Assembly: GCA_023481285.1 (NCBI GenBank)
Contig: JAMCWL010000001.1
Location: 1,539 to 65,538 of the forward strand
DNA: 64,000 nt
Source: Actinomycetota bacterium
GTDB taxonomy: Bacteria; Actinomycetota; Aquicultoria; Aquicultorales; JAMCWL01
Direction: 5' to 3'
The translations under genes and the position numbers were made by a program. Below the pieces are notes generated by a model that saw only the letters and a program-made list of their open reading frames with translations, made no database searches and was not told where the DNA came from. This document shows positions 616 through 15,686 of this stretch, one piece after another. Positions within the stretch are counted from its first letter, which is position 1. Each line of letters starts with the position of its first letter.

Positions 616-1236
616 TTATATACCAGGCGTTTTGCTCCTAAAAAAGACAATTTCTCTCATCAACCGCTTTCTGTCCTTTCCGGGAATAACACCCTCTTCA
701 ATGTATTTGCAATATCTCAGCACTTGCACAGACGGTCGCATTCCAAGCAGACCAAGAACATGGCCGCGGTCGACAAGGCCGTGCGGTTGCTTAGGACTCC
801 TATCGAGATATGCGCTCATGCTGCACCATGGGTACTGATCGGGAGATGCGACCAGTCCGACGACTACCGGATTAAGGTGGACGTATCTTGTGGCTTCAAG
901 CAAATGGGCATCCGTTTCGATAATGCTCGCTTTATACCGTCCCTGAAAGAGATGGCCGATTCGTGTGTAAATTCGATTAAAGTACTTGGCATAGCGTAAA
1001 TTTAGAGTGTGCATTATCCGCGAGAGCGGCGCTTCATCGGTCTTTATGATGAGATGGGTGTGGTTTTTCATAAGGCAGTATGCAAGGAGCCTGAACTCGT
1101 AAAGATTCTTGCTCGCTTTGATAGTATCCAAATAAAAGAGGCGATCGTCATCGGTGAGAAAGACATCCTCTCGGTTATCTCCTCTAGTGTATGCATGGTA
1201 TATGGCCCCTTTATACTCGATCCGCGGCTTTCTCAT
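616..1236 (-). mobile_element. REP-associated tyrosine transposase (RayT; IS200/IS605 TnpA-like Y1 HUH enzyme)
   Basis: 206-aa ORF with an HUH-type motif (MKNHTHLII) and a downstream conserved Tyr region (ATRYVHLNP), typical of Y1_Tnp/COG1943. Flanked on both sides by palindromic repeats. Confidence 0.85.
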
Positions 1237-1326: not shown

Positions 1327-1422
1327 TTACAGGTAAAATTGCTGGCAGGGGAATTGTGCGGTACCTGGTACCGGTTACAGGTAAAATTGCTGGCAGGGGA
1401 ATTGTGCGGTACCTGGTACCGG
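1327..1422. repeat. Perfect tandem duplication, 48 nt x2, each copy ending in GTGCGGTACCTGGTACCGG
   Basis: Copies 1327..1374 and 1375..1422 are identical by eye. Located between the RayT 5' region and the ppsA stop (1423). Confidence 0.9.
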
Positions 1423-3753
1423 TTATGCTACCTCCGGCGGTTTCCTCAACTGCTTCTCAAGCTTCTCAATGCGTTCGAGGCGCCTGAGAAGGATCTTCTG
1501 CTCGGCGGCGGCGACAATCTTGCGCACGGACTCGATGACGTCCGGATTTACGGAGATGGATGTGATGCCGAACTCGACGAGCATCTCCGCGATCTCGGGA
1601 TATACGGAGGGCGCCTGTCCACAAAGCGAACTAGTTACACCATGCTCCTCCGCCTTCTCGATCACGGTTTTTATCGCCATCACGACGGCCGGATTGCGCT
1701 CGTCAAACTCGGCGGCGAGCAGCTCAGAGTCCCGGTCGATTCCCAGGATGAGTTGAGTAAGGTCGTTTGAGCCGATGGAGACGCCGTCGATACCACTCCG
1801 GCAGAACTCGTCAATCAGAAAGACGTTCGACGGCACCTCGACCATCATCCAGAGCTTGAAGTCGGGCGTCGGACGCAGGGCTTCCAAGTCGAGAATCTGC
1901 CCGATCCGCGAGAGTTCGTCAAGGGTACGGACGAAAGGTATCATGAGGTGCAGGTTTTTCAGCCCCCATTCTTTCCGCACCTTTTTGAGGGCGGCGAGCT
2001 CCAGGCGAAAGAGGTCGGGCTCCTTCACGTAGCGGGAGGCTCCCCGATAGCCGATCATCGGATTACCCTCGACCGGCTCATACTTATCGCCGCCCTTAAG
2101 GTTACGGTACTCGTTCGTCTTGAAGTCCGTCGCCCGGTAGACGACCGGTCTAGGGAAGAAAGCCTGGGCGAAGGTCTTTAAGCCCGCGGCCAACTTGTCC
2201 ACAAACTCATCGCTCCTGCCGTCTTCCATCATCGCCCTGGGGTGTTCGCCAATTCCGGCGATCATGAACTCGGCCCTCAGAAGGCCCACTCCGTCGACAG
2301 GTCGAGCCGCCACCTCCTCCGCCAGCTCCGGCTCGCCAAGGTTAACGTAGATCTTGGTAGCTGTCACCGGGACAACCTCGGCGGGGGCCGGCGGCGCCAT
2401 CTTGCGCTCGATCGCCTCGGCTGCCGGAACTTTAACCTCACCGCTCATGACGAGGCCCTTTGACCCGTCAACCGTGATCAACTGGCCGTCTGACAGGGTT
2501 TTTGTCGCAGATCCCGTCCCGACGGCGCAAGGGATCCCGAGCTCCCGGGAGACGATCGCCGCGTGGGCGGTTCGTCCTCCGGTATCGGTCACGATGGCCG
2601 CGGCACGGCGCATGGCCGGGACGTAATCAGGAGAGGTCATCGTGGTGACCAATACATCGCCCTGCTTGACCTTGTCGATTTCATCGGCGCTTAAGATTAC
2701 CCTCACCGGCCCGGAGGCGACGCCGAAGGAGGCGGCAACGCCTTCGAGGAGCACCTTGCCTTCTGGAGCAGGAGCCGCCGGTTTCTCCTCCCTCACCGCC
2801 TTCTTAAGCGTGGTAACGGGCCTCGTTTGAACGAGATAAATCTTTCCGCCTGCGATCGCCCATTCGATGTCCTGAGGGAAGCGGTAGTGCTCCTCGACTT
2901 GCCGTCCCAGCTCGGCGAGCTCTTTGATCTCCCGCTCGGAGAGCTTCCGGGCCTCGCCCTCCACGGGCGGGACGTCGACGTGGCGGTTCTTTTCGTCGAC
3001 CATCGCTATCTTCCAGGTCTGCTTCGCCACTTTTACATCGATCATATCGAGGGTCTTCTTATCCACCAGGTAGCGGTCTGGGGTGATCGCGCCGGAGACG
3101 ACCGTTTCGCCGAGGCCTAGGCCCGCCTCTATTTCGATCTTCGCCTCGTCGTTCGTCACCGTATCGAGGGTGAACATGACGCCGGACTTTTCCGACTGGA
3201 CCATTATCTGGATTGGAACGGCGATGCCCACTTTAAAGTGGTCGAAACCGTGTGTGGCCCGGTAAAAGATGGCGCGCGCTTCGAAAAGGGAGGACCAGAC
3301 CGCCTGGACGGTATTGACGACGTGCTCAGCGCCGGTGACGTTGAGGAAAGTGACCTGCTGTCCGGCGAAGGAAGCAGCCGGCAGGTCCTCAGCCGTCGCC
3401 GAGGAGCGGACAGCGACGTAGATTTTCTTTCCCCTGGCGAGCCGCTCGTAGGCCGTAACGATGGCGCCCGCAATCTCGGTGGGCATCTTCGCCGTCAGGA
3501 TCGTCTCCTTGATCCGCCAGCTCGCCTCGTTAAGGGCCTTGTTGTCCTCAACGTCGAGATTTTTGAGTATCGATGCTATCTTCTCCCTGATCCCCGTCTT
3601 GCCGAGGAAGCTGAAATAGTCGCTCGATGAGACGACGAAACCCGGCGGCACGGGAAAACCGGCGTTGGCCATCTCGCCGAGATTGGCACCCTTGCCTCCC
3701 GCTTCCCTCACGTTGTCCTTGGTTATCTCGGAAAACCAGAGTATGGTGTTCAT
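1423..3753 (-). CDS. ppsA: Phosphoenolpyruvate synthase (pyruvate, water dikinase)
   Basis: 776 aa with an N-terminal ATP-grasp (GGKGANLGEM), a phosphohistidine swivel region (TGGRTAHAAIVSRELGIPCAVG) and a C-terminal PEP-utilising domain. SD AGGAGG lies 7 nt upstream of the ATG. Confidence 0.93.
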   Translation of the reverse strand: MNTILWFSEITKDNVREAGGKGANLGEMANAGFPVPPGFVVSSSDYFSFLGKTGIREKIASILKNLDVEDNKALNEASWRIKETILTAKMPTEIAGAIVTAYERLARGKKIYVAVRSSATAEDLPAASFAGQQVTFLNVTGAEHVVNTVQAVWSSLFEARAIFYRATHGFDHFKVGIAVPIQIMVQSEKSGVMFTLDTVTNDEAKIEIEAGLGLGETVVSGAITPDRYLVDKKTLDMIDVKVAKQTWKIAMVDEKNRHVDVPPVEGEARKLSEREIKELAELGRQVEEHYRFPQDIEWAIAGGKIYLVQTRPVTTLKKAVREEKPAAPAPEGKVLLEGVAASFGVASGPVRVILSADEIDKVKQGDVLVTTMTSPDYVPAMRRAAAIVTDTGGRTAHAAIVSRELGIPCAVGTGSATKTLSDGQLITVDGSKGLVMSGEVKVPAAEAIERKMAPPAPAEVVPVTATKIYVNLGEPELAEEVAARPVDGVGLLRAEFMIAGIGEHPRAMMEDGRSDEFVDKLAAGLKTFAQAFFPRPVVYRATDFKTNEYRNLKGGDKYEPVEGNPMIGYRGASRYVKEPDLFRLELAALKKVRKEWGLKNLHLMIPFVRTLDELSRIGQILDLEALRPTPDFKLWMMVEVPSNVFLIDEFCRSGIDGVSIGSNDLTQLILGIDRDSELLAAEFDERNPAVVMAIKTVIEKAEEHGVTSSLCGQAPSVYPEIAEMLVEFGITSISVNPDVIESVRKIVAAAEQKILLRRLERIEKLEKQLRKPPEVA

Positions 3754-4044: not shown

Positions 4045-4082
4045 AGTAGTAGTCGTCTCTATTAGTAGTAGTCGTCTCTATT
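4045..4082. repeat. Perfect tandem duplication, 19 nt x2 (AGTAGTAGTCGTCTCTATT), about 60 nt upstream of the M56 peptidase gene
   Basis: Read directly: 4045..4063 equals 4064..4082. Confidence 0.85.
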
Positions 4083-4144: not shown

Positions 4145-5176
4145 ATGGTATTAACGGTCATCGATCGCGTCGCTCGTGCTTTCTTGGACTCTTTATACAT
4201 GTTCGCTCTGGTTGCCGTCATTATCAAGCTCTTCAGGGTCAAGAATCCTTCGATCAGAATACTCCTCTACCTCGTGGCCATCTTTCGGCCGGTCGTCCTT
4301 CTCTTTGACGGCTTTTATGTAAAAGGTCTCTCCGGCTTTATTAGGCCGCTAATACGCTTTGTCGATCCGACGGGTCTTATTACCGGGGTGCAAGAGGGAC
4401 CAACGTTTTTTTATACCGCCTTCAACGGTAATTACGCCAGCAAGATACTTGCCTTAATCATTTTGAGCGCTATTCTTCTGATCGTCTTTCATCTAGCTAA
4501 GCTGGCTCTCTTCTATTCTATGTTTAAGCGCCTTACAGCAGTGCAATCTTCAAGGCATAAAGAGCTTGAAAATATCGTTGATGAGTTGGCTCGCTTAGCT
4601 AAAACGACTAAGCCGAAGCTCCGGATCGTGGACACCCGCTATCCGACGCCCTTTACGGTCGGCTGGATCGAACCGACGATCATCGTCTCCAAAGCCTTCG
4701 CCGAAACGATCTCGACGGGGTCGATCAGGTTGGCCCTGGCCCACGAGATCTCACACGTCAAGAATGGAGATAACGCGGTCAGGTGGTTGGCCGTCGTCGG
4801 GCGGGACATCATGTTCTTCAGCCCGTTCGCCTGGCTTGCATACAAGCGAATAGAGCGGGAGATGGAGAAAGCCTGCGACAGCATGTCCGCGGAGTACGCT
4901 GGGAAAAGTTGTAAAGATGTGGCGGGTATGCTCGTTGAGGTAGCCGAGCACTATTTCAATCTCAAGGTGAAGCCCCTACCGCTCCGTTACGAAATCAGCA
5001 GCATGGCTTCTAACAGAGGTTTGTTGTCAGAGAGAATCGACTCACTGGACGGCGGCGGCATTCCGACCAAGACCTCTCTTAGGAAGAAGATCAGCATTGC
5101 CGTGGGTTGCTTGATACTATTCTTGCTCCAGATTGCTCCAGTTTTTGACATAGGCGGACGTGTGGTGGTTTTTTAG
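4145..5176 (+). CDS. Membrane metallopeptidase, M56 (BlaR1/MecR1-like) / M48 family
   Basis: 343 aa with several N-terminal TM helices and an HExxH motif (LAHEISHVKNGD). No adjacent BlaI; a BlaI-family gene lies at 11555..11905. Confidence 0.7.
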   Translation: MVLTVIDRVARAFLDSLYMFALVAVIIKLFRVKNPSIRILLYLVAIFRPVVLLFDGFYVKGLSGFIRPLIRFVDPTGLITGVQEGPTFFYTAFNGNYASKILALIILSAILLIVFHLAKLALFYSMFKRLTAVQSSRHKELENIVDELARLAKTTKPKLRIVDTRYPTPFTVGWIEPTIIVSKAFAETISTGSIRLALAHEISHVKNGDNAVRWLAVVGRDIMFFSPFAWLAYKRIEREMEKACDSMSAEYAGKSCKDVAGMLVEVAEHYFNLKVKPLPLRYEISSMASNRGLLSERIDSLDGGGIPTKTSLRKKISIAVGCLILFLLQIAPVFDIGGRVVVF

Positions 5177-5185
5177 GCCCCTCCA

Positions 5186-6574
5186 TTAGTCGGAATCAAG
5201 GGTCGGTCCTCGGCTGAAATCTAAGGTTCTTACTATCAACTTGTCGCCTATTCTCTCCAGATACGTGTCGATGAGCTTCCGGATTGATCCGCAGTACGGC
5301 TCGTAAAGCGAGTCGTTTACGGCAAGCGCCGAGTAGGCGCAGCCGCCCCCGCAGATGAACGCGAGCTCGCAGGAGCGGCACTTCTCGATGGTGGCGACGT
5401 TTCTCTTTCCCCACTGCGAAGCCTTATCTTCAAAGAGCGCGAAATCCGGACGATAACGGCCGATCGCGTAATCGGCGCTCCCCATGCACTCTGAGCAGGC
5501 GTAGATAAATCCATCCGGCCCGAATTCGAAGGCTTCAAGGTTGTTGGCCTCACAGTAAAAGAGCCAAGGCCTCCCTGACTTACCGCTCTCAACCACGGCT
5601 TTCAGGTGACTCAGCGAGCGAAACATTCCCAGATTAAAGATGCGTGCCGCTGAGGCGTCCGCTTCAAGGAGATCCATGATCGGACCGAGAAGCTCCCACT
5701 CCTCCATCAGGTATGGGTTGCCGCCTGAACGGGTGTGATCTACAACCGGCGACAGGTTGCAGGCAAAGCGCTCGCGATCTGGCCAGCCAAACTTGCCGAC
5801 CAGATGCGCCATATCTCCGAGGTAGGGCAGGTTCTGCGAATCCACGTTTATTCTCAGGTTGACCGGTATGCCCAGATCGAGGAGGAGATTGACCGACCTA
5901 ACGACCGCATTGTAGGTCCCTCCTCCGCCGGCCGTGATTCGGCGCTCGTCGTGTATCTCTTGCGGGCCGTCAAGCGTCACCTGTACCTTGAGCGAAGAAG
6001 CGAACGCCCTAAGTTCTTCCTCGAATGAGGGGCCGTTCACGCCGTTGGTCGCGATAGATACGGGAAATGCGCGCTCGGACGCCAGTTCAAGCACCCTCCT
6101 TACCGCCAGTCTGTTGCAAGGCAGCAGCGGCTCTCCGCCGAACAGGGCGATCATCTTGGGGAGATTGGATTCTCCCGAAGAGATGGAATCGATGGCGGCA
6201 AAGACGAGGTCGACGTCTTTTATGCTCATCACCGGCGACCCTTTGGCCACCCGGTCCTTCTCGAAGCAGTAGGCGCAACGGAGGTTGCAGGAGTAGGTGG
6301 GGGATATCGAAAACCTGAGCATCCGCCGCTTCGGCGCGTGCAGGCTGAGGACTTTCTCGACGATGGCCTTCTCGTCCGCTTCACTTAAGAAGAGGTGGCC
6401 CCGGGCGAGGAGCTTTTGGCGGAGCGCCGGGTCGAGCGGCCCGGCGCCCTTTCTTGATTTCAGCGCTACTCCGGTTCTCCGGTCGACGATATCGACCGCT
6501 CCGGTCAGACCGTTGACCAGGAGTGAGAAGGCCTCGGAAATCTCGTGAATGATCAGGTACCGTGAGGAGATCAT
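5186..6574 (-). CDS. Radical SAM / SPASM-domain peptide-modifying enzyme (start revised to internal Met19 of track ORF 5186..6628)
   Basis: CxxxCxxC (CNLRCAYC) and a C-terminal SPASM cysteines block (CRSCELAFICGGGC plus upstream C..G....C). From Met19 the N-terminus reads MISSRYL..FSLLVNGLTGAVDIVD, the usual start of peptide maturases. The upstream 18 aa are a hydrophobic extension overlapping a better-supported small ORF. Confidence 0.88.
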   Translation of the reverse strand: MISSRYLIIHEISEAFSLLVNGLTGAVDIVDRRTGVALKSRKGAGPLDPALRQKLLARGHLFLSEADEKAIVEKVLSLHAPKRRMLRFSISPTYSCNLRCAYCFEKDRVAKGSPVMSIKDVDLVFAAIDSISSGESNLPKMIALFGGEPLLPCNRLAVRRVLELASERAFPVSIATNGVNGPSFEEELRAFASSLKVQVTLDGPQEIHDERRITAGGGGTYNAVVRSVNLLLDLGIPVNLRINVDSQNLPYLGDMAHLVGKFGWPDRERFACNLSPVVDHTRSGGNPYLMEEWELLGPIMDLLEADASAARIFNLGMFRSLSHLKAVVESGKSGRPWLFYCEANNLEAFEFGPDGFIYACSECMGSADYAIGRYRPDFALFEDKASQWGKRNVATIEKCRSCELAFICGGGCAYSALAVNDSLYEPYCGSIRKLIDTYLERIGDKLIVRTLDFSRGPTLDSD

Positions 6575-6690
6575 CAGCTTGCCAACCAACACAAGAACCA
6601 GCAGCAAAGCGGGCCGGGTGTGTCGCATGCCTTTTCATCCTGCGCGTCCATGATGTGCCAGAGTTCGCCCTCGCCGTTCAGGGATAACAT
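6574..6690 (-). CDS. Candidate RiPP precursor peptide, 38 aa: MLSLNGEGELWHIMDAQDEKACDTPGPLCCWFLCWLAS
   Basis: Hand-translated and below the track size cutoff. SD GGAAAGGAGG lies 5 nt upstream of ATG 6690. Stop TGA 6576..6574 overlaps ATG 6574..6572 of the rSAM (TGATG). Acidic leader-like N-half, 4 Cys and 2 Trp in the last 17 aa, and mostly G/C at third codon positions. Confidence 0.45.
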   Translation of the reverse strand: MLSLNGEGELWHIMDAQDEKACDTPGPLCCWFLCWLAS

Positions 6691-7054
6691 ATCAACCTCC
6701 TTTCCTCGCTTACCATCAGGTCAATATGTTAAGAGTCGATACGGCTTGCAACTTATGGCTGCACCGGCGCTCGGCCTTGATGCATGGACTTTTGAAAGGA
6801 GTACGGACGGATCACTTCCGGTGCCGTCAAACCAACAGAGCGCTTGCTTGCTTAATTGTTTTATCGGCAGACCGTACCCAAACTTGAGAGAAAAAAAGAT
6901 CAGAGGCGGTGCTTGGTAAGTGTCGCTCCAACACATAAGCGCTTTCAATAAAGAAATAGGCACACTTATGTATTTAGAGCACGCTATCACATGCTCTAAA
7001 GGGCATACCGGCGTGCCCCTATGGACCAAGCGCCCTTTTAATGAGAGAGACGTC

Positions 7055-8077
7055 CTACTTGAAGATTTCCGGGGGTACTTCAAGGTGATCGGCGGGGGTC
7101 AATCCCTCGTTTCCGATGTAGTATACCTGCCAGACGCCGTCGACTCGCTTGGCGATAACCCCGGCGCCAAGCCGGTATTTCTTCGCATGTATCCTGGCAA
7201 AGGCCCAATCTCCTTTGATGCCCATGTAGTCGACGAGAAAGCCGTCCGCCTTCATCTCGGAGGCGATAAGATTGCTCTCTTTGAGGGTGGCGGTTATAGC
7301 TATGCGGTCCGGATCGTCGGGCACTGAGGTAACGACGCGCGCCGTTGTCGCCCAGAGATCGTCGGGGCTCTCGGGATAACTCGAGCGGAGCAGGTTCGTA
7401 CCGACCGCGACGAGCTGCCAACCACCCGCCTCGTTCTTCCTCAGGATCGCTGCGGCGCCGTCAAAATGGTCGTCGCCCAGCCCGAAGCGACTCCAATCAA
7501 GCCTCGCCCAGTCGCCGTAGACGAGCACCCGGCTGATGTGCGCGACGACCGCGTTGAGGTGGCGAGCGGGTATCATTCCCGACTTATCCTCTCGAATGGC
7601 GGCGATGATCGGCGCGTATGCCGGGTTCGCCTCGAACCCGCTGGGGCTCGGCGTCGCCTCCGTCGCCGGCTTTGGCGGCACGGGCTTCTCTTCGATCTTG
7701 GGGAGGGCCGGCTTTAGCGAGGCCGCTTTCTTGGTCGTGGTTTCCTTGGGCCGTTCCACCTTTTCGACTCTGGTGGGGGAGATCGAGAGCCTGACGGTAT
7801 TCAGGGCTTTCGAAATCACGCCCATCCCAATCCCGGCCGATGCGAGCAGGACGACGGCGAGCGCGGCGGTGGCCATCAAGCCGGCCCTTGCTCTTAACCT
7901 TCTGCGAAGCGGCGCCCTGAAAGCCATCTCCGACCCTCCCAGAATCTCGTTCCTGTAGAACTCGCCCGTCTCTTCCAGCGCTCTCTCGATCTCAGGTTCG
8001 GCCTCCACCTCATCGCTGGCGGGCATCTCATCCTCCATCAATCTCGTGAAGAGATCGATCTTCTCCTCTTTCGACAT
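7055..8077 (-). CDS. Single-pass membrane protein with acidic cytoplasmic N-terminus (anti-sigma-like topology) and an extracytoplasmic domain of unknown function
   Basis: 340 aa with a TM segment (LMATAALAVVLLASAGIGMGVI). Sits directly downstream of a sigma region-4-like gene. Hairpins at about 6955..7010 look like its terminator. Confidence 0.65.
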   Translation of the reverse strand: MSKEEKIDLFTRLMEDEMPASDEVEAEPEIERALEETGEFYRNEILGGSEMAFRAPLRRRLRARAGLMATAALAVVLLASAGIGMGVISKALNTVRLSISPTRVEKVERPKETTTKKAASLKPALPKIEEKPVPPKPATEATPSPSGFEANPAYAPIIAAIREDKSGMIPARHLNAVVAHISRVLVYGDWARLDWSRFGLGDDHFDGAAAILRKNEAGGWQLVAVGTNLLRSSYPESPDDLWATTARVVTSVPDDPDRIAITATLKESNLIASEMKADGFLVDYMGIKGDWAFARIHAKKYRLGAGVIAKRVDGVWQVYYIGNEGLTPADHLEVPPEIFK

Positions 8078-8129: not shown

Positions 8130-8477
8130 CTAAAACTCGAACTCAGGAAAGGCTTCCAATATTTTTCTCAACCTGGATAATGCCCGTGATTTATCCTTTC
8201 TGAGCTGTTCTTTTGTTATCCGGCCGCCGCTCCTCTCGACGATTTCGTCGGGTTCGACCGATTCGAAATAGAGGAGGTGAAGCAGGAGCCACGACCGGCG
8301 ATATCTCCGTCTGAGCTCCTCCATCGCCATTAGGAGGGCGCGCACTCTAACGGGGACCTCGTCCGATCGCCGGAGCGCCCTTCTAATAGGCTCCGTCTCG
8401 ATCATCAGCAGCGCATCTATCTCTTCAAGTTTTTGGCGACCGGTCTCCCGGCGGGCTGCGTCTTCTTTCTTGAGCAC
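8130..8477 (-). CDS. Small HTH protein resembling sigma-70 region 4
   Basis: 115 aa. The C-terminal half (ESVEPDEIVERSGGRITKEQLRKDKSRALSRLRKIL) looks like a region-4 HTH. Function inferred only. Confidence 0.5.
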   Translation of the reverse strand: MLKKEDAARRETGRQKLEEIDALLMIETEPIRRALRRSDEVPVRVRALLMAMEELRRRYRRSWLLLHLLYFESVEPDEIVERSGGRITKEQLRKDKSRALSRLRKILEAFPEFEF

Positions 8478-8618: not shown

Positions 8619-9407
8619 TCAAATCTCTTGATGCTCAAGGACATATGCGGCCGCCGCTATCATGACCACCGAGGCGGCGATGGATATGGCGATGGCCGGA
8701 TAGGTCTTCGAGAACGCCTGGCTCCCGGTGGCGATCTTAAGGGCCATGCCCGGAAGAGCGCCCGGCGAGTACTTCTCCAATCCGCGGCCGAGGCTGGCCA
8801 GTATGGAGAGGGCGAAGACCGAGAGGAGGGCCAGACCTCCAGCTCCCATCTGATGCTTGAGCAGCGCGCTGAAGAAGATCGTTATCGATAAGACCAGTAG
8901 GGCGAAGGCGGCGAATGCTAACGTTGAGAGAGCAATTGGTCGGAACGGCGCTTTATCAAAGAGCAGGATGGTGTAGAGATAGCACGCCCCAAGCCCCATG
9001 GCGCCCGAAGCGGCCAGGAGCCCAGTTTGGGAGAGGAACTTGGAGACGACGATTGAAGTGCGGGCGATCGGCTTGGTGACGACCAGCGCAAGCGTGCCGC
9101 GCGTCTTCTCCTCGGAGATCAGGCCCATGGAGGTCAGGATGAGCGCGAGAATACCGAACTGAGAGAGGTTCTTGAACCATTGGCCGTAGGCGTCGACCGC
9201 CGTCGGCTCAGGTATTTTAATCTGTCCGAAAATCTGCTGCTGGGTCTTGTCCGCTTGTATCGCGGCTTTGACCAGCGCCGGCGTGAACTTGGCCGTCACC
9301 GGGCTCAAGACGCCGAAGAAGATGAATATCAGGGGAATCACCCAGATGCGGTAGGTTCTTAAGATAGCCTTGATCTCTTTCTTAAAAAAGACGCAACCGC
9401 TTCTCAT
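8619..9407 (-). CDS. ABC-2 type transporter permease
   Basis: 262 aa, about 6 TM helices. 4-nt overlap with the upstream ATPase gene. Confidence 0.8.
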   Translation of the reverse strand: MRSGCVFFKKEIKAILRTYRIWVIPLIFIFFGVLSPVTAKFTPALVKAAIQADKTQQQIFGQIKIPEPTAVDAYGQWFKNLSQFGILALILTSMGLISEEKTRGTLALVVTKPIARTSIVVSKFLSQTGLLAASGAMGLGACYLYTILLFDKAPFRPIALSTLAFAAFALLVLSITIFFSALLKHQMGAGGLALLSVFALSILASLGRGLEKYSPGALPGMALKIATGSQAFSKTYPAIAISIAASVVMIAAAAYVLEHQEI

Positions 9408-10366
9408 TCGGCTCCCCCCAGCACTTTGGCCTTTTCGGTTTGCTTTCCATTTCGCTCCTCGACGAGGTCGACGAAGATGTCTTCGAGGGCGATCTCCTTA
9501 AGCTCCAACTTTCTCACCGGCAATCCGGCTCCCGCGACGACGCCCGCCAGCTCCATCTGGGCCGATTTGATGTCCGAGACATCGATCGTGAGCAAGCCCC
9601 CGTCACTGGCGACCGACGATACCCAGGGGACCCCTCTAAGCTTCTCCGCCAGGGGCGCTGCATCTGCATCCAGCTCAATCGAGAAGGTCGGCCTCGTATA
9701 ATTCTGCTTGATGCTTTCAAGGTCTCCTTGGATGACCAGGCGGCCCCGGTCTATTATCGCGACCGAATCGCAGACCCGCTCGACGTCGGCGAGGATATGC
9801 GTTGAGAAGAAGACCGTCTTCTTCTCGGAGAGCGAATCGATCATGTCGAGGACCTCCTTGCGCCCGATCGGGTCGAGGGCGGAGGTCGGCTCATCCAGGA
9901 AGAGGACGTCCGGGTTGTTGACGAAGGCCTGTGCGATACCGAGCCGCTGCTTCATGCCGCGGGAGAAGCCACCGATCTTCCTGTCGATTTCCGCCAGTCC
10001 GGCGGCGTCCAAAAGCGCGGCCACCCGGCTCTTAAGGTCGGCGCCCCGGAGCCCGAACATCTCTCCGGCAAAGGCGAGATACTCGCCGGCCTTCATCCAC
10101 TCGTAGAACGCCGGGACGTCCGGCAGATATCCGATTGAGCGCTTAATCGATGCCGGTTCGCCAATACCGTCACGGCCAAGGATCTTTATCCGGCCGCTCG
10201 TTGGGTGGGCGAGCCCCACGAGAATCCTGGTCGTCGTCGTTTTGCCCGCGCCGTTCGGCCCGAGGAAGCCGAAGACCGCACCCTCCGGCACGTCGATATC
10301 CAGCCCATCGAGCGCCTTAAAATCCCCGAAATTCTTGGTAAGGTTCCTGACCTCAATCGCGTTCAT
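9404..10366 (-). CDS. ABC transporter ATP-binding protein (ABC-2/DrrA-like)
   Basis: Walker A GPNGAGKTT, signature FSRGMKQRL, Walker B LFLDEPTSALD. Confidence 0.92.
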   Translation of the reverse strand: MNAIEVRNLTKNFGDFKALDGLDIDVPEGAVFGFLGPNGAGKTTTTRILVGLAHPTSGRIKILGRDGIGEPASIKRSIGYLPDVPAFYEWMKAGEYLAFAGEMFGLRGADLKSRVAALLDAAGLAEIDRKIGGFSRGMKQRLGIAQAFVNNPDVLFLDEPTSALDPIGRKEVLDMIDSLSEKKTVFFSTHILADVERVCDSVAIIDRGRLVIQGDLESIKQNYTRPTFSIELDADAAPLAEKLRGVPWVSSVASDGGLLTIDVSDIKSAQMELAGVVAGAGLPVRKLELKEIALEDIFVDLVEERNGKQTEKAKVLGGAE

Positions 10367-10613
10367 TGGGCTTCCTCCCGATCACAAAGTAGGCGACCGC
10401 TCCAAGCATGCCGGCTGGAAAAGAAGCCAGCGACGCGATGAGAATGATCACCCAGAGCACCCTGCCGCCGCGAACCTGAGCGTCAGGCTGCTTTCTAAGG
10501 CTTGCCAAGGCCGCCACGACCGCTCCCCACTGAATTACAACGAGGGGGATGACGATGGCAAGGACCTGTCCGACCGTTAGCCCGCCGACCAAAGTATCAT
10601 TCAAAAAACCCAT
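10353..10613 (-). CDS. PLDc_N-domain small membrane protein
   Basis: 86 aa, two TM helices, C-terminal AYFVIGRKP-type motif typical of PF13396. Overlaps the ABC ATPase start. Confidence 0.65.
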   Translation of the reverse strand: MGFLNDTLVGGLTVGQVLAIVIPLVVIQWGAVVAALASLRKQPDAQVRGGRVLWVIILIASLASFPAGMLGAVAYFVIGRKPNERD

Positions 10614-10703
10614 CCTATGTCTCCTTAATTGACTCCGTTTTTCTAGTTGATCGCTGCCGTCGCCACTCTTCTCTTAAGCCGAGTTTGGAGAAGGAGAGGA
10701 GCA

Positions 10704-11048
10704 TCAGGATTCCGGGGAGCCTCCTTTCACCAAGTCGTCGAGCTCCCGCGAAATGCTGAACCACGCACACGCCATTTCATTCAGTTCGTTGGCGCCTTTC
10801 GATGTGAGGTCGTAATACTTGCGGGGTGGCCCGACCGGCGATTCACGCCAGACGGAGTCTATCAATCCAGCTTTTTTCAAGCGGCCGAGCAACGGGTAGA
10901 TCGTCCCCGCGCTGATTGCCAGACCAGGACGCTCCTGTAAGCGGCTGACGATCTCAAAGCCATACATCTCGCCTCTGTTGAGAATCCCGAGGATCGCCAG
11001 TTCGAGGACGCCCTTTCTAATCTGCGATGTCCAGCTCTCTTTCTCCAC
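10704..11048 (-). CDS. PadR family transcriptional regulator
   Basis: 114 aa winged-helix (LELAILGIL..MYGFEI...GTIYPLLGRLKKAGLI). GTG start. First gene of a PadR-PLDc_N-ABC operon. Confidence 0.88.
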   Translation of the reverse strand: MEKESWTSQIRKGVLELAILGILNRGEMYGFEIVSRLQERPGLAISAGTIYPLLGRLKKAGLIDSVWRESPVGPPRKYYDLTSKGANELNEMACAWFSISRELDDLVKGGSPES

Positions 11049-11554: not shown

Positions 11555-11905
11555 CTAGCGAAAGCGCTTTAGCAGCTCATTAACCTCTTCAGGGCTGCCT
11601 TGAAGGACGGTCTCGATAACGCCGTGTATCATAGCCTCCGCTGCATCCAGGCGGCTGATCTTGGCGCTGTAGTAGTAGGTCTTGCCGCTCTTATCCTGCT
11701 TGAGGATGCCGCGGTTGGCGAGGTTCGTCATGGTCACCATAACGGTGGTGTAGGGTAGGTACTCTTTTTTAACCAGTATCTCGTGTATCTCGCGGACCGA
11801 TATCTTGTTGCTCTTCCAGACCAGGTTCATGATGCTCGCTTCGAGCTCTGAGAACCCGTTGATGGCGATTCTCTTACTTCTTCTTCCCACGTTGTTTACC
11901 TCCAA
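11555..11905 (-). CDS. BlaI/MecI/CopY family transcriptional repressor
   Basis: 116 aa; SELEASIMNLVW...SVREIHE...YTTVMVTMTNLANRGIL pattern of penicillinase-repressor winged helix. Confidence 0.82.
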   Translation of the reverse strand: MEVNNVGRRSKRIAINGFSELEASIMNLVWKSNKISVREIHEILVKKEYLPYTTVMVTMTNLANRGILKQDKSGKTYYYSAKISRLDAAEAMIHGVIETVLQGSPEEVNELLKRFR

Positions 11906-12071: not shown

Positions 12072-13775
12072 ATGGGGAAGAAGAAGCGAAAGCCAAAAGA
12101 GAAGAAGACCGTCGAACCAAAGAGACGTCCGGCTGCTGAGGAGGGCCTTACCTCCATCATCATCCCGGTACATAACCGGGTGGAGCTGACCCGACTCTGC
12201 ATAGAAGCCGTCGAGGAATGCACCCCAGAGGGCTCCTACGAGCTGATTGTCGTCGACAACGGCTCGACCGACGCCACGCCCGAGTACCTGGCCGGAACTG
12301 GCGCGCACGTAATTCGCTTCCCCGAGAACCGGGGGATCGCCGTCGCCTGGAACGCCGGTATCAGGGAGGCGAAGGGGCGGTATCTCGTCTTTTTGCACAA
12401 TGACGTCCTCGTCTCGCCCGGATGGCTCGAAGCTATCCTGAGGCCGTTCGGCGATCGCCGGGTGGCTTGCGCCTGCCCGTCCTACACCGAGTTCAACTTC
12501 GATCAAGGTTTTGCGAAGCTGGCCGCCGGCGTATCGAGGATGGCTTCCAGGCGGTGGGAGAGGAGGATCGCGCCCTTCTGCTTTGCGCTGAGCCGGAACG
12601 CCATCCATCGACTCGGCGACTTCGACGAGGCGCTTGCACATGGGCCATATGCGGACGTCGATTTCGAGTTTCGCCTTGTTGAGGCGGGGCTTCGTTCGGT
12701 GAGCGCCAACAACGCGCTCGTCCATCATTTCGGCGGCCAGACTGCGCTTAAACTTCCGGAGTTCTACGGGGAGAACGATGAGCAAAACTGGCGGTACTTG
12801 AATAAAAAATGGGGCGTTCTGCCTGCACGGCGTCTGGCGAATAACCCGGAGTTCGAGGTCAAACTGGAAGCTATGAGGAACGTAGTTTTACCTGATAAAA
12901 TACCAAATTATCGCGAACAGGGTGGACGAGGGATTATCATTTCAAGGCTGGTGCGACTTATCGCCGTCACTATTTTTTACAACGAGCGGGAAATGCTCCC
13001 CGGCTGCCTTGAAACGCTCGACGATGTTGACGAGATAGTCCTGGTCGATGGGGCTTACGCCGATTTTCCTTACGAGGTTCCCTGGTCGACGGATGGGACG
13101 CTCGAATGGATAAAGGAGCGGCAGAAGATAGATACAAGAATACGGTTGATCGAGTGCAAGACGGCCTGGGCCGACGAGGTTGAGAAGAGGAGCGCCTACT
13201 TCACCGGCGGCGAGGGAGACTGGTATCTCATCATCGACGCCGATGAACGCCTGGTCTGCGTGGACGAGAACACTATGGAAAGCCTTAAGTCTTATGTTCA
13301 GAGCTATCCGCTCGATTACTTCATGCTTGACGTCATGACCCAACCGGCCACGCCGCAAATCGAAAGGTATGGTCGCATCTTCCGGCATCTGCCCGGTCTC
13401 AGGTATGAAACGGCGCACTCCAACATAGTCGCCGATGGGAAGATGCTCTTGGCTGAGTCCCCTTCACATGGGACGGTCTCGCTTTACTCCGGGTGTCACA
13501 TCGTCCATCTTAAGAAAGCTCGCTTGTCGGAGCGCGTGGAAGAGAAGTACGATTATTATCAGAAGTTGGCGGCGAGGGAGATCGGGGCTCTTAAGAAAGA
13601 GGTCGTTGCTTGCTGGAATGACCGTTCAAAGAAGCGTGAGCATGAGGCGTTTGTTAAGATGTACAGGGCGCAACTTGCAATGCTCGGTAAGGCGGAAGCA
13701 GAGCGAATAGCTATCGATCCAGAGTATCTTTCGTTCGAAAATACCGAGGGCCGGCTTGAGCCAACCGTCGATTAG
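12072..13775 (+). CDS. Two-domain glycosyltransferase (N-terminal GT2 plus C-terminal GT2-like), paralog A
   Basis: 567 aa. N-domain SIIIPVHNR..VVDNGSTD..ENRGIAVAWNAG. C-domain IFYNERE..LVDGAYADF..IIDADERL. Confidence 0.85.
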   Translation: MGKKKRKPKEKKTVEPKRRPAAEEGLTSIIIPVHNRVELTRLCIEAVEECTPEGSYELIVVDNGSTDATPEYLAGTGAHVIRFPENRGIAVAWNAGIREAKGRYLVFLHNDVLVSPGWLEAILRPFGDRRVACACPSYTEFNFDQGFAKLAAGVSRMASRRWERRIAPFCFALSRNAIHRLGDFDEALAHGPYADVDFEFRLVEAGLRSVSANNALVHHFGGQTALKLPEFYGENDEQNWRYLNKKWGVLPARRLANNPEFEVKLEAMRNVVLPDKIPNYREQGGRGIIISRLVRLIAVTIFYNEREMLPGCLETLDDVDEIVLVDGAYADFPYEVPWSTDGTLEWIKERQKIDTRIRLIECKTAWADEVEKRSAYFTGGEGDWYLIIDADERLVCVDENTMESLKSYVQSYPLDYFMLDVMTQPATPQIERYGRIFRHLPGLRYETAHSNIVADGKMLLAESPSHGTVSLYSGCHIVHLKKARLSERVEEKYDYYQKLAAREIGALKKEVVACWNDRSKKREHEAFVKMYRAQLAMLGKAEAERIAIDPEYLSFENTEGRLEPTVD

Positions 13776-13840: not shown

Positions 13841-15535
13841 ATGGGAAAGAGCAAGCAAAAGAGAGGAGATAAAAGACCCGTTCCGCCGAGGAAGAGGCCC
13901 GTTATCGAAGCCGGTCTTACCTCCATCATCATCCCCGTGCACAACCGGGTGGAGCTGACCCGACTCTGCATTGAGACCATAAGGGAGTGCACCCCAGAGG
14001 ACTCTTACGAGCTCGTCGTGATCGACAACGGCTCGACCGACGCCACCCCCGAGTACCTGACCGGGACCGGGGCGCATGTCATCCGATTCCCCGAGAACCG
14101 GGGGATCGCCGTCGCCTGGAACGCCGGTATCAGGGAGGCGAAGGGGCGGTATCTCGTCTTTTTGCACAATGACGTCCTCGTCTCGCCCGGATGGCTCGAA
14201 GCTATCCTGAGGCCGTTCGGCGATCGCCGGGTGGCTTGTGCCTGCCCCTCTTTCATGGAGTCCCAGCTCAAGCTGGATTTCCCGAAGCTCGCGGTGGACT
14301 TCTCCCAAATACTACCCGCGTACTGGCCGGGTAGCCTGACGCCGTTTTGCTTCGCGATCAGCCGCCGAGAGATTCACCGCATCGGTCCCTTCGACGAGGC
14401 GCTGACCCAGGGTCCTTATGCGGATTACGACCTCCTGTTCAGGCTCGCCAAGGCGGACGCGCCTCCCGTGGTCGTGAGCAACGTGCTCGTCCACCACTTC
14501 TGGGGGCAGACGGCGGTCGCCATACCGGAGTTTTACGGGGAGAACGACGAGCGAGACTGGCTCTACTTCAGGAAGAAGTGGAACCTTCCTCCCATGGAGC
14601 GCAAGTCCGAGGACCCCGACTTCATCGACCGCGTGCGGGGGATGGACCGAGTCGTCGTCCCGACGGGGCCGCCCGACTACCGCGTGGAGATCGAGAAGAG
14701 GGTCGCCCCGACCAAGCCGACTCGCATCGTCGCCTGCGTCTCCTTTTACAACGATATGAAGCTTCTGCCCGGGTGCATGGAAACCCTGGACGGCGTGGAC
14801 GAAATCGTCCTTATCGACGGGGCGTACGCCGGCTTTCCCCACGAGGTCCCCTGGTCAACCGACGGATCTCTCGAATGGATCAAGGAGCTCCAGAGGGTCG
14901 ACCCCAGGATAAGGTTGATCGAGTGTGAGCGGGCTTGGGAAGACGAGGTTAAGAAGAGGAGCGCCTACTTTGCTGGCGGCGATGGAGATTGGTGTCTGGT
15001 CATCGATTCGGACGAAAGGCTCGTCGGCAACGAGGCGAACCACATGGAGAGGCTCAAGGAGTACCTGGCCGTTTACCCATTCGACTGCGTCTTGCTGGAC
15101 GTCGAGACTAGGCCCTCCACGACTCCGATGGAGAGATACGCGCGCATCTACCGCCACCTACCTGGGCTGAGATACGAGACGACGCACTTCAATGTCGTCG
15201 CCGATGGAAAGAAGGTCACACTCGACGCCATGTGGTCGGGGAGGACCGCCGTCTACCGGGGCTTGTTCATCGTCCACCTGAAGCAGGATCGGGGGTCGGC
15301 GAGGCTGGGCGACTCATGGCGCTACTACCAGGAAATGGCGATGAGGGAGGTCGAGGCCTTGAAAAGGGAGATTGTTGCTTGCTGGAGCGACCCCGACAGG
15401 CGATTCGAGCGTCTGGCGTTGGTCCAGATATATCAGACGCAGGTCAAGCTGCTCGACAAGGAGCGAGCCGAAAGAATAGCTCTCGACCCAAAGTACCTCT
15501 CTTTTCACCTTGACACTTCGGGTGGCTATGTGTAG
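13841..15535 (+). CDS. Two-domain glycosyltransferase, paralog B (tandem duplicate of 12072..13775)
   Basis: 564 aa, collinear with paralog A. Upstream leader and RBS region also duplicated. Confidence 0.85.
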   Translation: MGKSKQKRGDKRPVPPRKRPVIEAGLTSIIIPVHNRVELTRLCIETIRECTPEDSYELVVIDNGSTDATPEYLTGTGAHVIRFPENRGIAVAWNAGIREAKGRYLVFLHNDVLVSPGWLEAILRPFGDRRVACACPSFMESQLKLDFPKLAVDFSQILPAYWPGSLTPFCFAISRREIHRIGPFDEALTQGPYADYDLLFRLAKADAPPVVVSNVLVHHFWGQTAVAIPEFYGENDERDWLYFRKKWNLPPMERKSEDPDFIDRVRGMDRVVVPTGPPDYRVEIEKRVAPTKPTRIVACVSFYNDMKLLPGCMETLDGVDEIVLIDGAYAGFPHEVPWSTDGSLEWIKELQRVDPRIRLIECERAWEDEVKKRSAYFAGGDGDWCLVIDSDERLVGNEANHMERLKEYLAVYPFDCVLLDVETRPSTTPMERYARIYRHLPGLRYETTHFNVVADGKKVTLDAMWSGRTAVYRGLFIVHLKQDRGSARLGDSWRYYQEMAMREVEALKREIVACWSDPDRRFERLALVQIYQTQVKLLDKERAERIALDPKYLSFHLDTSGGYV

Positions 15536-15638: not shown

Positions 15639-15686
15639 CCGCCTGGGTTTATTGATATAGTACCGCCTGGGTTTATTGATATAGTA
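15639..15686. repeat. Perfect tandem duplication, 24 nt x2 (CCGCCTGGGTTTATTGATATAGTA), upstream of the guaB3-like gene
   Basis: 15639..15662 equals 15663..15686, read directly. Confidence 0.9.

Follow-up and report, generated by a model that had tools for sequence, protein, structure and literature searches.

Leader-guided radical S-adenosylmethionine (SAM) enzymes with a SPASM domain are a well-known general kind of maturase for peptides that are made by ribosomes and modified after translation (RiPPs), and the closest described system to the one reported here is the CteB/CteA pair of Clostridium thermocellum (PDB 5WGG and 5WHY), whose product thermocellin is a ranthipeptide of the SCIFF type. 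As Grove and colleagues are said to have described in 2017, the CteB-type arrangement leaves an open site on auxiliary cluster I that binds a substrate cysteine. The locus analyzed here lies in a 64,000-nucleotide stretch of contig JAMCWL010000001.1 from an Actinomycetota bacterium (hereafter the window; all plain coordinates are window positions), where a 38-codon peptide gene is joined to the gene of a radical SAM (rSAM)/SPASM enzyme. The precursor/maturase family to which both genes belong is unnamed and apparently undescribed, and its distinctive traits are a vicinal Cys-Cys core, a conserved leader and an association with BlaI-like repressors and M56 proteases. Our best complete explanation, to which we give a probability of about 0.6, is a two-gene RiPP cassette with a thioether-forming maturase and an M56 protease as third component. 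We are highly confident that the peptide and the enzyme form a genuine precursor-maturase pair, and very probably the 38-codon peptide is the substrate of the adjacent enzyme.

The two genes and the signals that link them are as follows.

6696..6705, minus strand: Shine-Dalgarno sequence GGAAAGGAGG, read directly, with a 5-nt spacer (TTGAT) to the peptide ATG

6574..6690, minus strand: precursor peptide gene, 38 codons plus TGA, start ATG 6690..6688, translated product MLSLNGEGELWHIMDAQDEKACDTPGPLCCWFLCWLAS

6610..6690, minus strand: putative leader MLSLNGEGELWHIMDAQDEKACDTPGP (residues 1-27), which contains M-x-S-[ILV]-N-x4-L-W, the motif that a logo of 77 unique peptides gives for the family

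6577..6609, minus strand: putative core LCCWFLCWLAS (residues 28-38), in which W-x-[WIL]-C-W comes after the Cys-Cys pair that is invariant in the same 77-peptide logo

6572..6576, minus strand: TGATG stop/start overlap between the peptide gene and the rSAM gene, read directly

6575..6628, minus strand: spurious 18-codon N-terminal extension of the annotated enzyme, MRHTRPALLLVLVLVGKL, which is the other frame of the 3' end of the peptide gene and has no counterpart in homologues

5186..6574, minus strand: rSAM/SPASM peptide maturase, 462 aa from Met19, taken as its true start (NCBIfam and Pfam matches, alignment, AlphaFold2 model and CteB match)

The stop codon of the peptide gene (TGA 6576..6574) and the ATG at 6574..6572 have the A at 6574 in common, and this ATG is codon 19 (Met19) of a mechanically called 480-aa open reading frame (ORF) at 5186..6628 on the minus strand. 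In the NCBI record the sole annotation here is that 480-aa 'radical SAM protein' (MCL5290908.1); the peptide gene was missed, and its exact product is known only from unnamed Logan gene calls. A first-pass annotation of this DNA had proposed the consensus Shine-Dalgarno sequence with its 5-nt spacer, the ATG at 6690, the 38-codon ORF, the TGATG junction at Met19, the origin of the 18-aa extension in the alternative frame of the peptide 3' end, and an enzyme with CxxxCxxC and a full SPASM block (C-x2-C-x5-C-x3-C). All of these were found as described when the sequence was read again, as was the count of four Cys and two Trp within the last 17 peptide residues. Within the peptide, we infer a leader/core boundary between residues 27 and 28.

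The rival to be weighed at this point is that the small frame is a chance ORF in GC-rich DNA and that the enzyme starts at ATG 6628, as in the NCBI record. The 480-aa frame is open from that ATG, and was annotated so; short ORFs are also common, 147 of at least 30 aa overlapping the first 14 kb of the window. Related loci (L-numbers below, with P-numbers for homologous proteins) speak against it. Metagenome contigs were scanned with a DNA pattern for the enzyme motif CE-x8-F-x-PDG-xx-Y-x-C, which gave 120 further loci, and the 87 loci with the enzyme N-terminus and at least 200 bp of upstream sequence present were counted. Following the homologue check suggested by the first-pass annotation, we found a Cys-rich small ORF with a similar C-terminus (pattern [SAT]-[LIVM]-x-x3-5-[LIM]W...CC) immediately upstream of the enzyme in 81 of the 87 loci, with -1 to 28 nt between peptide stop and rSAM start in most of them. 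The converse pattern, homologues that conserve the N-terminal extension and lack any upstream small ORF, was looked for and is not the case. In L001 and L002, whose enzymes are 61-63% identical to that of the window, a 43-codon ORF (MISLNSEKDLWH...ACCWYICWGWCH) ends in the same TGATG junction, and equivalent ORFs are present in L004, L006 and L084-L087 at 32-44% enzyme identity. Furthermore, these loci gave 69 unique peptide ORFs, and almost every one of them has an AGGAGG-like ribosome-binding site in front of it.

The substitution pattern points the same way. In the largest clade (41 unique DNA sequences), the ratio of nonsynonymous to synonymous polymorphism (pN/pS) is about 0.14 in leader and core alike, and heterozygosity reaches 0.32-0.48 at codon position 3 against 0.08-0.12 at positions 1 and 2, a third-position variability 4-6 times that of the other two. 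These values indicate that purifying selection acts on the peptide frame and not on the frame of the enzyme extension. The same module was also recovered from two other starting points, namely, from the called peptide P0131 (L208) back to the enzyme and from a further enzyme homologue, P0053 (L211, on a 4.66-Mb contig). Taken together, the occurrence in 81 of 87 loci, the conserved motifs, the pN/pS value, the ribosome-binding sites and the recovery in L208 and L211 effectively exclude a chance ORF, a reading that we regard as refuted for practical purposes; comparative evidence of this kind indicates that the 38-codon ORF is a real, conserved small-peptide gene under purifying selection.

The enzyme itself was placed by database search, alignment and profile comparison, with NCBIfam release 20 and Pfam as the reference for named families. 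The search returned over 120 homologues, which are 31-69% identical to the window enzyme and with few exceptions 445-475 aa long. In an alignment of 24 sequences, the 23 homologues, of 451-469 aa, nearly all start at window Met19 or a few residues away, with the pattern M-x-x-S-K-Y, and none of them has anything that matches the 18-aa extension. The alignment thereby indicates that Met19 is the true enzyme start and that the public annotation is 18 residues too long. An earlier scan of genome contigs had used generic SPASM patterns, and only L004-L006 from it fall within the family; L007-L083 were set aside as distant SCIFF-like maturases. From Met19 onward, three segments of the enzyme are of interest.

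6320..6574, minus strand: N-terminal domain resembling a RiPP recognition element (RRE), residues 1-85, three strands and three helices in the AlphaFold2 secondary structure

6266..6289, minus strand: CxxxCxxC motif for the SAM-binding [4Fe-4S] cluster, here CNLRCAYC (residues 96-103), with C96, C100 and C103 invariant in the alignment

5291..5554, minus strand: SPASM domain, which binds two auxiliary clusters (TIGR04085, 49.3 bits against a cutoff of 27)

Profile classification, likewise suggested at the outset, placed the enzyme above the cutoffs of TIGR04085 and of Pfam PF04055 (52 bits against 29.5) and below those of all named families. The top NCBIfam matches are all RiPP maturases, with scores far under cutoff: CefB 118.7 against 600, TIGR04463 109 against 525, ryptide 100 against 600, PapB 98 against 340, the SCIFF maturase TIGR03974 79 against 425, YhhB 74 against 445 and FxsB 50 against 370. 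Six more distant family enzymes did not reach any named-family cutoff either. On these profiles, the enzyme is best described as an rSAM/SPASM peptide maturase without a named family.

Within the SPASM region, exactly seven cysteines are invariant across the 24 sequences (C341, C360, C399, C402, C408, C412 and C428). They fit the 7-Cys motif C-x9-15-G-x4-C ... C-x2-C-x5-C-x3-C ... C, the central block being CRSCELAFICGGGC (C-x2-C-x5-C-x3-C, residues 399-412). Only these seven are conserved in the region, and they align with those of CteB, which fits an auxiliary cluster I held by three protein cysteine ligands. An AlphaFold2 model of the enzyme (predicted local distance difference test score 89.7) comprises an N-terminal domain, a radical SAM barrel and a SPASM domain. 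Its N-terminal domain has strands at residues 7-11, 16-21 and 27-31 and helices at 32-39, 49-58 and 65-78; no match to a PqqD/RRE hidden Markov model (HMM) was found. CteB was the best Foldseek match in the PDB (E = 5e-21, template modeling score 0.64-0.71, full length over 461-482 columns), followed by anSME, SuiB, TigE and ChlB. It was also the best sequence match among solved structures (72 bits), SkfB being among the PDB matches too. The residues that correspond to the CteB catalytic-site proximity positions are F104, F145, A175, T200, S361 and E362, and agreement at these positions is partial.

With the fold closest to CteB and the 7-Cys SPASM pattern shared with it, thioethers formed from the Cys-Cys pair are our best guess at the reaction. 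By analogy with CteB, we rate such thioether crosslinks at somewhat less than an even chance. The peptide family bears on the same question. In the 77 unique peptides, L-W in the leader and C-C in the core (77/77) are invariant, and five further positions are strongly preferred: N (74/77), S (67), P at -2 (59), W at +2 (63) and C at +5 (60). The shared leader M-x-S-[ILV]-N-x4-L-W is followed by a core that opens with Cys-Cys, usually as P-x-CC-W-x-[WIL]-C. The core is GPLCCWFLCWLAS in the window clade and ASCCWxxxCW in the Aquicultor-type clade; a large clade from the subsurface, whose leader is Lys-rich, reads MKSINKTKNLWNKD...SPMCCWVWCFWW, a GC-rich clade carries two units (GPDCCWFICDLCCWVKC), and other variants carry three CC units (CCFQLGSCCLQTCADCCFQF). 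An acidobacterial clade has a Trp-free core, A-CC-[LF]-N-I-[KQ]-[IV] (for example, CCLNIK). The weight that the first-pass annotation gave to Trp in a Cys/Trp-rich core thus needs correcting: what is conserved is the Cys-Cys pair together with the leader motif S-x-N-x4-LW, and tryptophan, though frequent, is dispensable, as in CCLNIK. Comparison of the cores suggests that the modified unit is the Cys-Cys pair plus the few, mostly hydrophobic, residues that follow it, with Trp common but not needed.

These cores also affect how much weight to give a different chemistry on a genuine precursor-maturase pair, be it a Trp/Phe C-C or ether crosslink (cyclophane, streptide, darobactin), epimerization or anSME-type conversion of Cys to formylglycine. 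Such chemistry would suit a Trp-rich core in which W directly follows CC in 63 of 77 peptides. It would also suit an enzyme whose top NCBIfam matches include the non-thioether enzymes ryptide, DynA and YhhB, whose next-best structural matches are anSME and SuiB, and in which two of the six CteB catalytic-site residues are clearly different. The aromatic residues, however, are not conserved (cores CCLNIK, CCITVE and CCIQI), whereas the CC pair is invariant; in its 7-Cys pattern the SPASM region follows CteB, not the fully ligated arrangement of anSME, and among solved structures CteB leads clearly in both the structural and the sequence comparison. Since CC is the sole invariant feature of the core and the acidobacterial branch lacks aromatics, the chemistry is most simply seen as centered on cysteine. 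The Trp-free branches argue against aromatic cyclophane formation as the shared reaction, and cyclophanes as a family-wide chemistry were set aside because of the aromatic-free cores CCLNIK and CCITVE. We regard a non-thioether chemistry as unlikely.

In its known extent the family comprises at least 77 distinct peptides and more than 100 loci, from Actinomycetota (Aquicultor-like), Acidobacteria and other, mostly uncultured, anaerobes. NCBIfam HMM scans of the peptides (8, then 4) gave no relevant match, the lone hit having an E value of 0.17, and a Pfam scan of the window peptide gave none. A peptide-profile search of a 5.8-billion-protein database returned just 13 called homologues, all of them unnamed.

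A membrane protease and a repressor recur around the peptide-rSAM pair, and both types of gene are present in the window.

4145..5176, plus strand: M56/M48 (BlaR1-like) integral-membrane zinc protease, 343 aa, with a HEISH motif (PF05569, 84 bits against a cutoff of 31)

11555..11905, minus strand: BlaI/MecI-family repressor gene (PF03965, 81 bits), the nearest Penicillinase_R gene in the window

The window M56 gene and the rSAM gene are convergent, with 9 nt between the M56 end and the rSAM gene. Its product has no Pfam domain after residue 248 and hence no penicillin-binding sensor domain, and its relatives are likewise short (349-362 aa). In L001-L003 the M56 gene lies directly upstream in the same direction, and L084-L087, L208 and L211 have, in this sequence, a Penicillinase_R (BlaI-like) gene, an M56 gene, the peptide gene and the rSAM gene. 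A co-directional upstream M56 gene was found in 41 of the 53 loci with at least 2.6 kb of upstream sequence, 39 of them with a BlaI gene as well. Identities of the rSAM and M56 proteins to the L087 references are closely correlated (Spearman 0.94, n=43), which argues that the genes are inherited as a module. These neighborhoods indicate that M56 is a conserved third component of the family. A branch free of M56 and BlaI is acidobacterial (L098, L116, L121, L158, L178, L200 and L202). There the SPASM enzyme is followed by a B12-binding rSAM protein and then either by an Rce1-like CAAX protease and an MFS exporter or by an ABC ATPase and an ABC-2 permease; L144 also has an Rce1-like protease. 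Judged from gene order, most branches thus combine the peptide and rSAM genes with one for a membrane-embedded protease. The RiPP leader peptidases listed in a 2023 review include no M48, M56 or CAAX proteases (PMC10885120).

The recurrence of this protease with a repressor raises another reading, which overlaps with the main explanation: the peptide may be a signal or cofactor of the BlaR1-like/BlaI-like pair and not an exported antibiotic-type product. The BlaI-M56-peptide-rSAM order is kept down to about 33% enzyme identity, modules of this order have no exporter gene, and their M56 proteins have no known sensor domain. In the Lys-rich clade (L088-L204), a palindrome, TAATATTA-N5-TAATATCA, stands upstream of blaI in 19 of 40 loci, and the same palindrome precedes blaI in the P0054 clade. 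A conserved GTATTAATCTGnTATAATATTA element with an extended -10 box is found 59 nt before the peptide start in 19 of 54 loci of the Lys-rich clade, and half-sites related to the palindrome overlap a TGnTATAAT promoter at this distance. Together, the two elements suggest a dedicated, possibly repressor-controlled promoter; they were not found in the window clade. In the more detailed form of this reading, the mature peptide, as a ligand or membrane partner, would activate M56, which would lead to cleavage of BlaI and de-repression of the operon, in an autoinduction or an envelope/redox stress circuit. Several observations do not sit well with it. The window clade has kept M56 without an adjacent BlaI gene. 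The acidobacterial and other branches replace M56/BlaI with a B12-rSAM protein, a CAAX-type protease and MFS or ABC exporters, which gives them the look of classical biosynthetic clusters, and the operator-like half-sites differ in spacing (N5 against N8) and may bind different proteins. We consider the signaling reading doubtful in its general form, and the detailed circuit is to be taken just as tentatively.

For the window itself, the BlaI-like gene lies on the same strand as the locus, about 5 kb upstream of it and about 6 kb from the M56 gene, and no inverted repeat was found upstream of it. Its product is a possible regulator of the peptide locus; still, with a convergent M56 gene and a BlaI gene 5 kb away, regulation by BlaI is unsupported for the window locus.

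Returning to the two-gene cassette with a thioether-forming maturase, we propose the following course. The 38-aa precursor would be translated from its own strong ribosome-binding site and the maturase by coupling at the TGATG junction, starting from Met19. The RRE-like domain would bind the conserved leader S-x-N-x4-L-W, and the open site of auxiliary cluster I would take a core cysteine as its ligand, in the manner of CteB. A 5'-deoxyadenosyl radical would then take hydrogen from a nearby residue, giving a thioether. The expected product would carry one or two intramolecular thioethers of the sactionine or ranthionine type (-2 Da each), with acceptors within about five hydrophobic residues after the Cys-Cys pair. 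The M56 protease would most likely either remove the leader at the membrane or sense the mature hydrophobic peptide and relay the signal to, or cleave, a BlaI-type repressor. In a speculative extension, which we think improbable as it stands, the family would be a RiPP class of its own in which a sensor-less M56 protease of the BlaR1 type processes or senses the mature, crosslinked hydrophobic core; the rSAM enzyme may then also install an unprecedented crosslink on the vicinal Cys-Cys pair.

Several points weigh against this explanation. No family member reaches the cutoff of any thioether-maturase family. At the six catalytic-site proximity positions of CteB, the window enzyme has an equal or similar residue in only about four cases (F, F, A, T, S, E here against F, F, T, S, H, Q in CteB). 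SPASM enzymes of similar fold carry out C-C and C-O bond formation, epimerization and oxidation, and the fold alone leaves the reaction unfixed. The window M56 gene is convergent and not co-transcribed with the locus, and the nearest BlaI-like gene is 5 kb off. Finally, 4 to 6 homologous loci have no adjacent peptide gene (L003, L005, L132 and L207). Two of the six exceptions, L112 and L177, encode a 74-aa peptide that has a different leader and still ends in ...SCC[IV]TVE. L003 has M56 and rSAM genes but no peptide gene, and it comes from the same sample (SRR36271374) as L209, in which a stand-alone homologous peptide gene, MVSLNDELWFDESGEGTVFDRSAIGPLCCWYLCWW (…GPLCCWYLCWW), adjoins tsaD, a gene that flanks the cluster in L001 and L002 as well. 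The L003 precursor is probably encoded in trans by the L209 peptide gene after a rearrangement.

Upstream of the peptide gene, a comparison of the window with L001 and L002 found the ribosome-binding site as the sole conserved motif. A sigma-70-like promoter search in the window clade had no match, and an Rfam scan of 5000-7300 gave no significant match. A 14-nt inverted repeat spans 6685-6698 and 6718-6731 (TAACATATTGACCT and AGGTTGATATGTTA on the minus strand). Its pairing could mask part of the ribosome-binding site and the peptide start codon, but the fold (-14.5 kcal/mol, z = -1.17) is not significant. A perfect 9-bp inverted repeat without a T-run, TTTAGAGCA-N10-TGCTCTAAA, lies at 6973..7000, about 55 nt past the stop of a gene for a 340-aa protein and about 285 nt before the peptide start; it is not conserved in L001 or L002.

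That gene (7055..8077, minus strand) is directly upstream of the peptide gene on the same strand, and its product has one predicted transmembrane segment and no Pfam match. Next to it, and also on the strand of the peptide gene, is a gene for a 115-aa Arg-rich helical protein (8130..8477, minus strand) with no Pfam match. Judged by eye, this protein resembles sigma-factor region 4, and with the 340-aa protein it could form an anti-sigma/sigma-like pair; neither gene is present in L001 or L002. Farther upstream, 8619..11048 on the minus strand holds a PadR regulator (10704..11048), an 86-aa ORF, an ABC ATPase (9404..10366) and an ABC-2 permease (8619..9407), which could be an exporter or immunity unit. 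These ABC-2 transporter and PadR genes were dropped as cluster members, as they are not conserved in L001/L002, although ABC-2 exporters do occur in the acidobacterial relatives.

Elsewhere in the window, two tandem paralogous family-2 glycosyltransferase genes (12072..13775 and 13841..15535, both on the plus strand) encode proteins of about 565 aa with nearly identical N-terminal halves, and an IS200-like Y1 transposase gene lies at 616..1236 on the minus strand (PF01797, 52 bits). Three perfect tandem duplications were noted: a 48-bp unit in 2.1 copies at 1327..1425, in the gap before a PEP-synthase-like gene (1423..3753); a 19-bp unit in two copies at 4045..4082, just upstream of the M56 gene; and a 24-bp unit in two copies at 15639..15686, after the second glycosyltransferase gene.

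NCBIfam release 20 and Pfam represent neither the enzyme nor the peptide family beyond the generic radical SAM and SPASM domains, and no description of the family was found in the searchable literature, although supplementary tables of large rSAM surveys could still contain it. The present analysis adds an unnamed precursor and maturase family to the radical SAM RiPPs, together with a simple signature (leader S-x-N-x4-LW, core P-x-CC-W) that is of use in annotation and in heterologous expression. The public record is corrected as well: a wrong start site makes its rSAM protein 18 residues too long, and it lacks the peptide gene. The BlaI-M56-peptide-rSAM order offers a testable candidate answer to the question of what sensor-less BlaR1-like proteases cut or sense. 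If that answer proved true, an M56/M48 enzyme would for the first time be a RiPP leader peptidase, or the many orphan BlaR1/BlaI-like pairs would have their first natural peptide ligand. A new chemistry on the Cys pair, if there is one, would be of direct interest to enzymologists.

Among known systems, CteB/CteA is the nearest. Both enzymes combine a radical SAM core with a full SPASM domain, preceded in CteB by an RRE and in the window enzyme by a domain that resembles one. The 7-Cys SPASM pattern is identical, just one Cys standing ahead of G-x4-C, and both enzymes are encoded beside a Cys-containing precursor. In contrast, enzyme identity is only about 21%, and the window peptide, with its CC pair, Trp-rich hydrophobic core and different leader, is unrelated to SCIFF. 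SCIFF loci, moreover, have no M56/BlaI partner. The enzyme scores under the TIGR03974 cutoff, and the peptides have no NCBIfam match to the six-Cys-in-45 precursor type. The anSME pattern differs by additional Cys before G-x4-C, which are absent from the window enzyme. CefB ('Cys-every-fifth', NF038107) and TIGR04463 (rSAM_vs_C_rich) are the top curated families for all tested members, with full-length alignments, and both act on short Cys-rich peptides. The family enzymes are nevertheless not members of either (best scores 175.9 bits against a cutoff of 600 for CefB and 163 against 525 for TIGR04463); the Cys spacing of the peptides differs, and the family peptides match no NCBIfam model. With AlbA, SkfB, PapB and QhpD, maturases of sacti- and ranthipeptides, the family shares a leader-guided SPASM enzyme and a Cys-containing core, but all scores are under the family cutoffs, and such peptides would have an unusual topology if two neighboring Cys served as donors to acceptors only 3-5 residues distant. 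From the cyclophane (3-CyFE/triceptide) maturases YhhB, FxsB and GrrM, which go with a conserved aromatic-x-x motif in every core, the present family is set apart by YhhB and FxsB HMM scores under cutoff and by its CCLNIK and CCITVE cores, which have no aromatic residue.

The protease and repressor likewise have familiar counterparts. As in BlaR1/BlaI (MecR1/MecI), an M56 zinc-protease membrane domain with HExxH is combined with a Penicillinase_R repressor, which stands directly upstream in most relatives. Unlike in those systems, the protease lacks a penicillin-binding sensor domain at its C-terminus, and the genes flanked by the pair are those of the peptide and the rSAM enzyme, with neither a beta-lactamase nor a PBP2a target gene. 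The window differs further in its convergent M56 gene and in having no BlaI gene next to it. In other respects, the arrangement recalls EpeP (M50, epipeptide), Ste24 (M48), Rce1 and MroQ (CAAX-type), where an integral-membrane protease acts on, or is encoded together with, a small modified Cys-containing peptide. For M56 in the present family, cleavage is a candidate role, and sister branches place an Rce1-like protease in the equivalent position.

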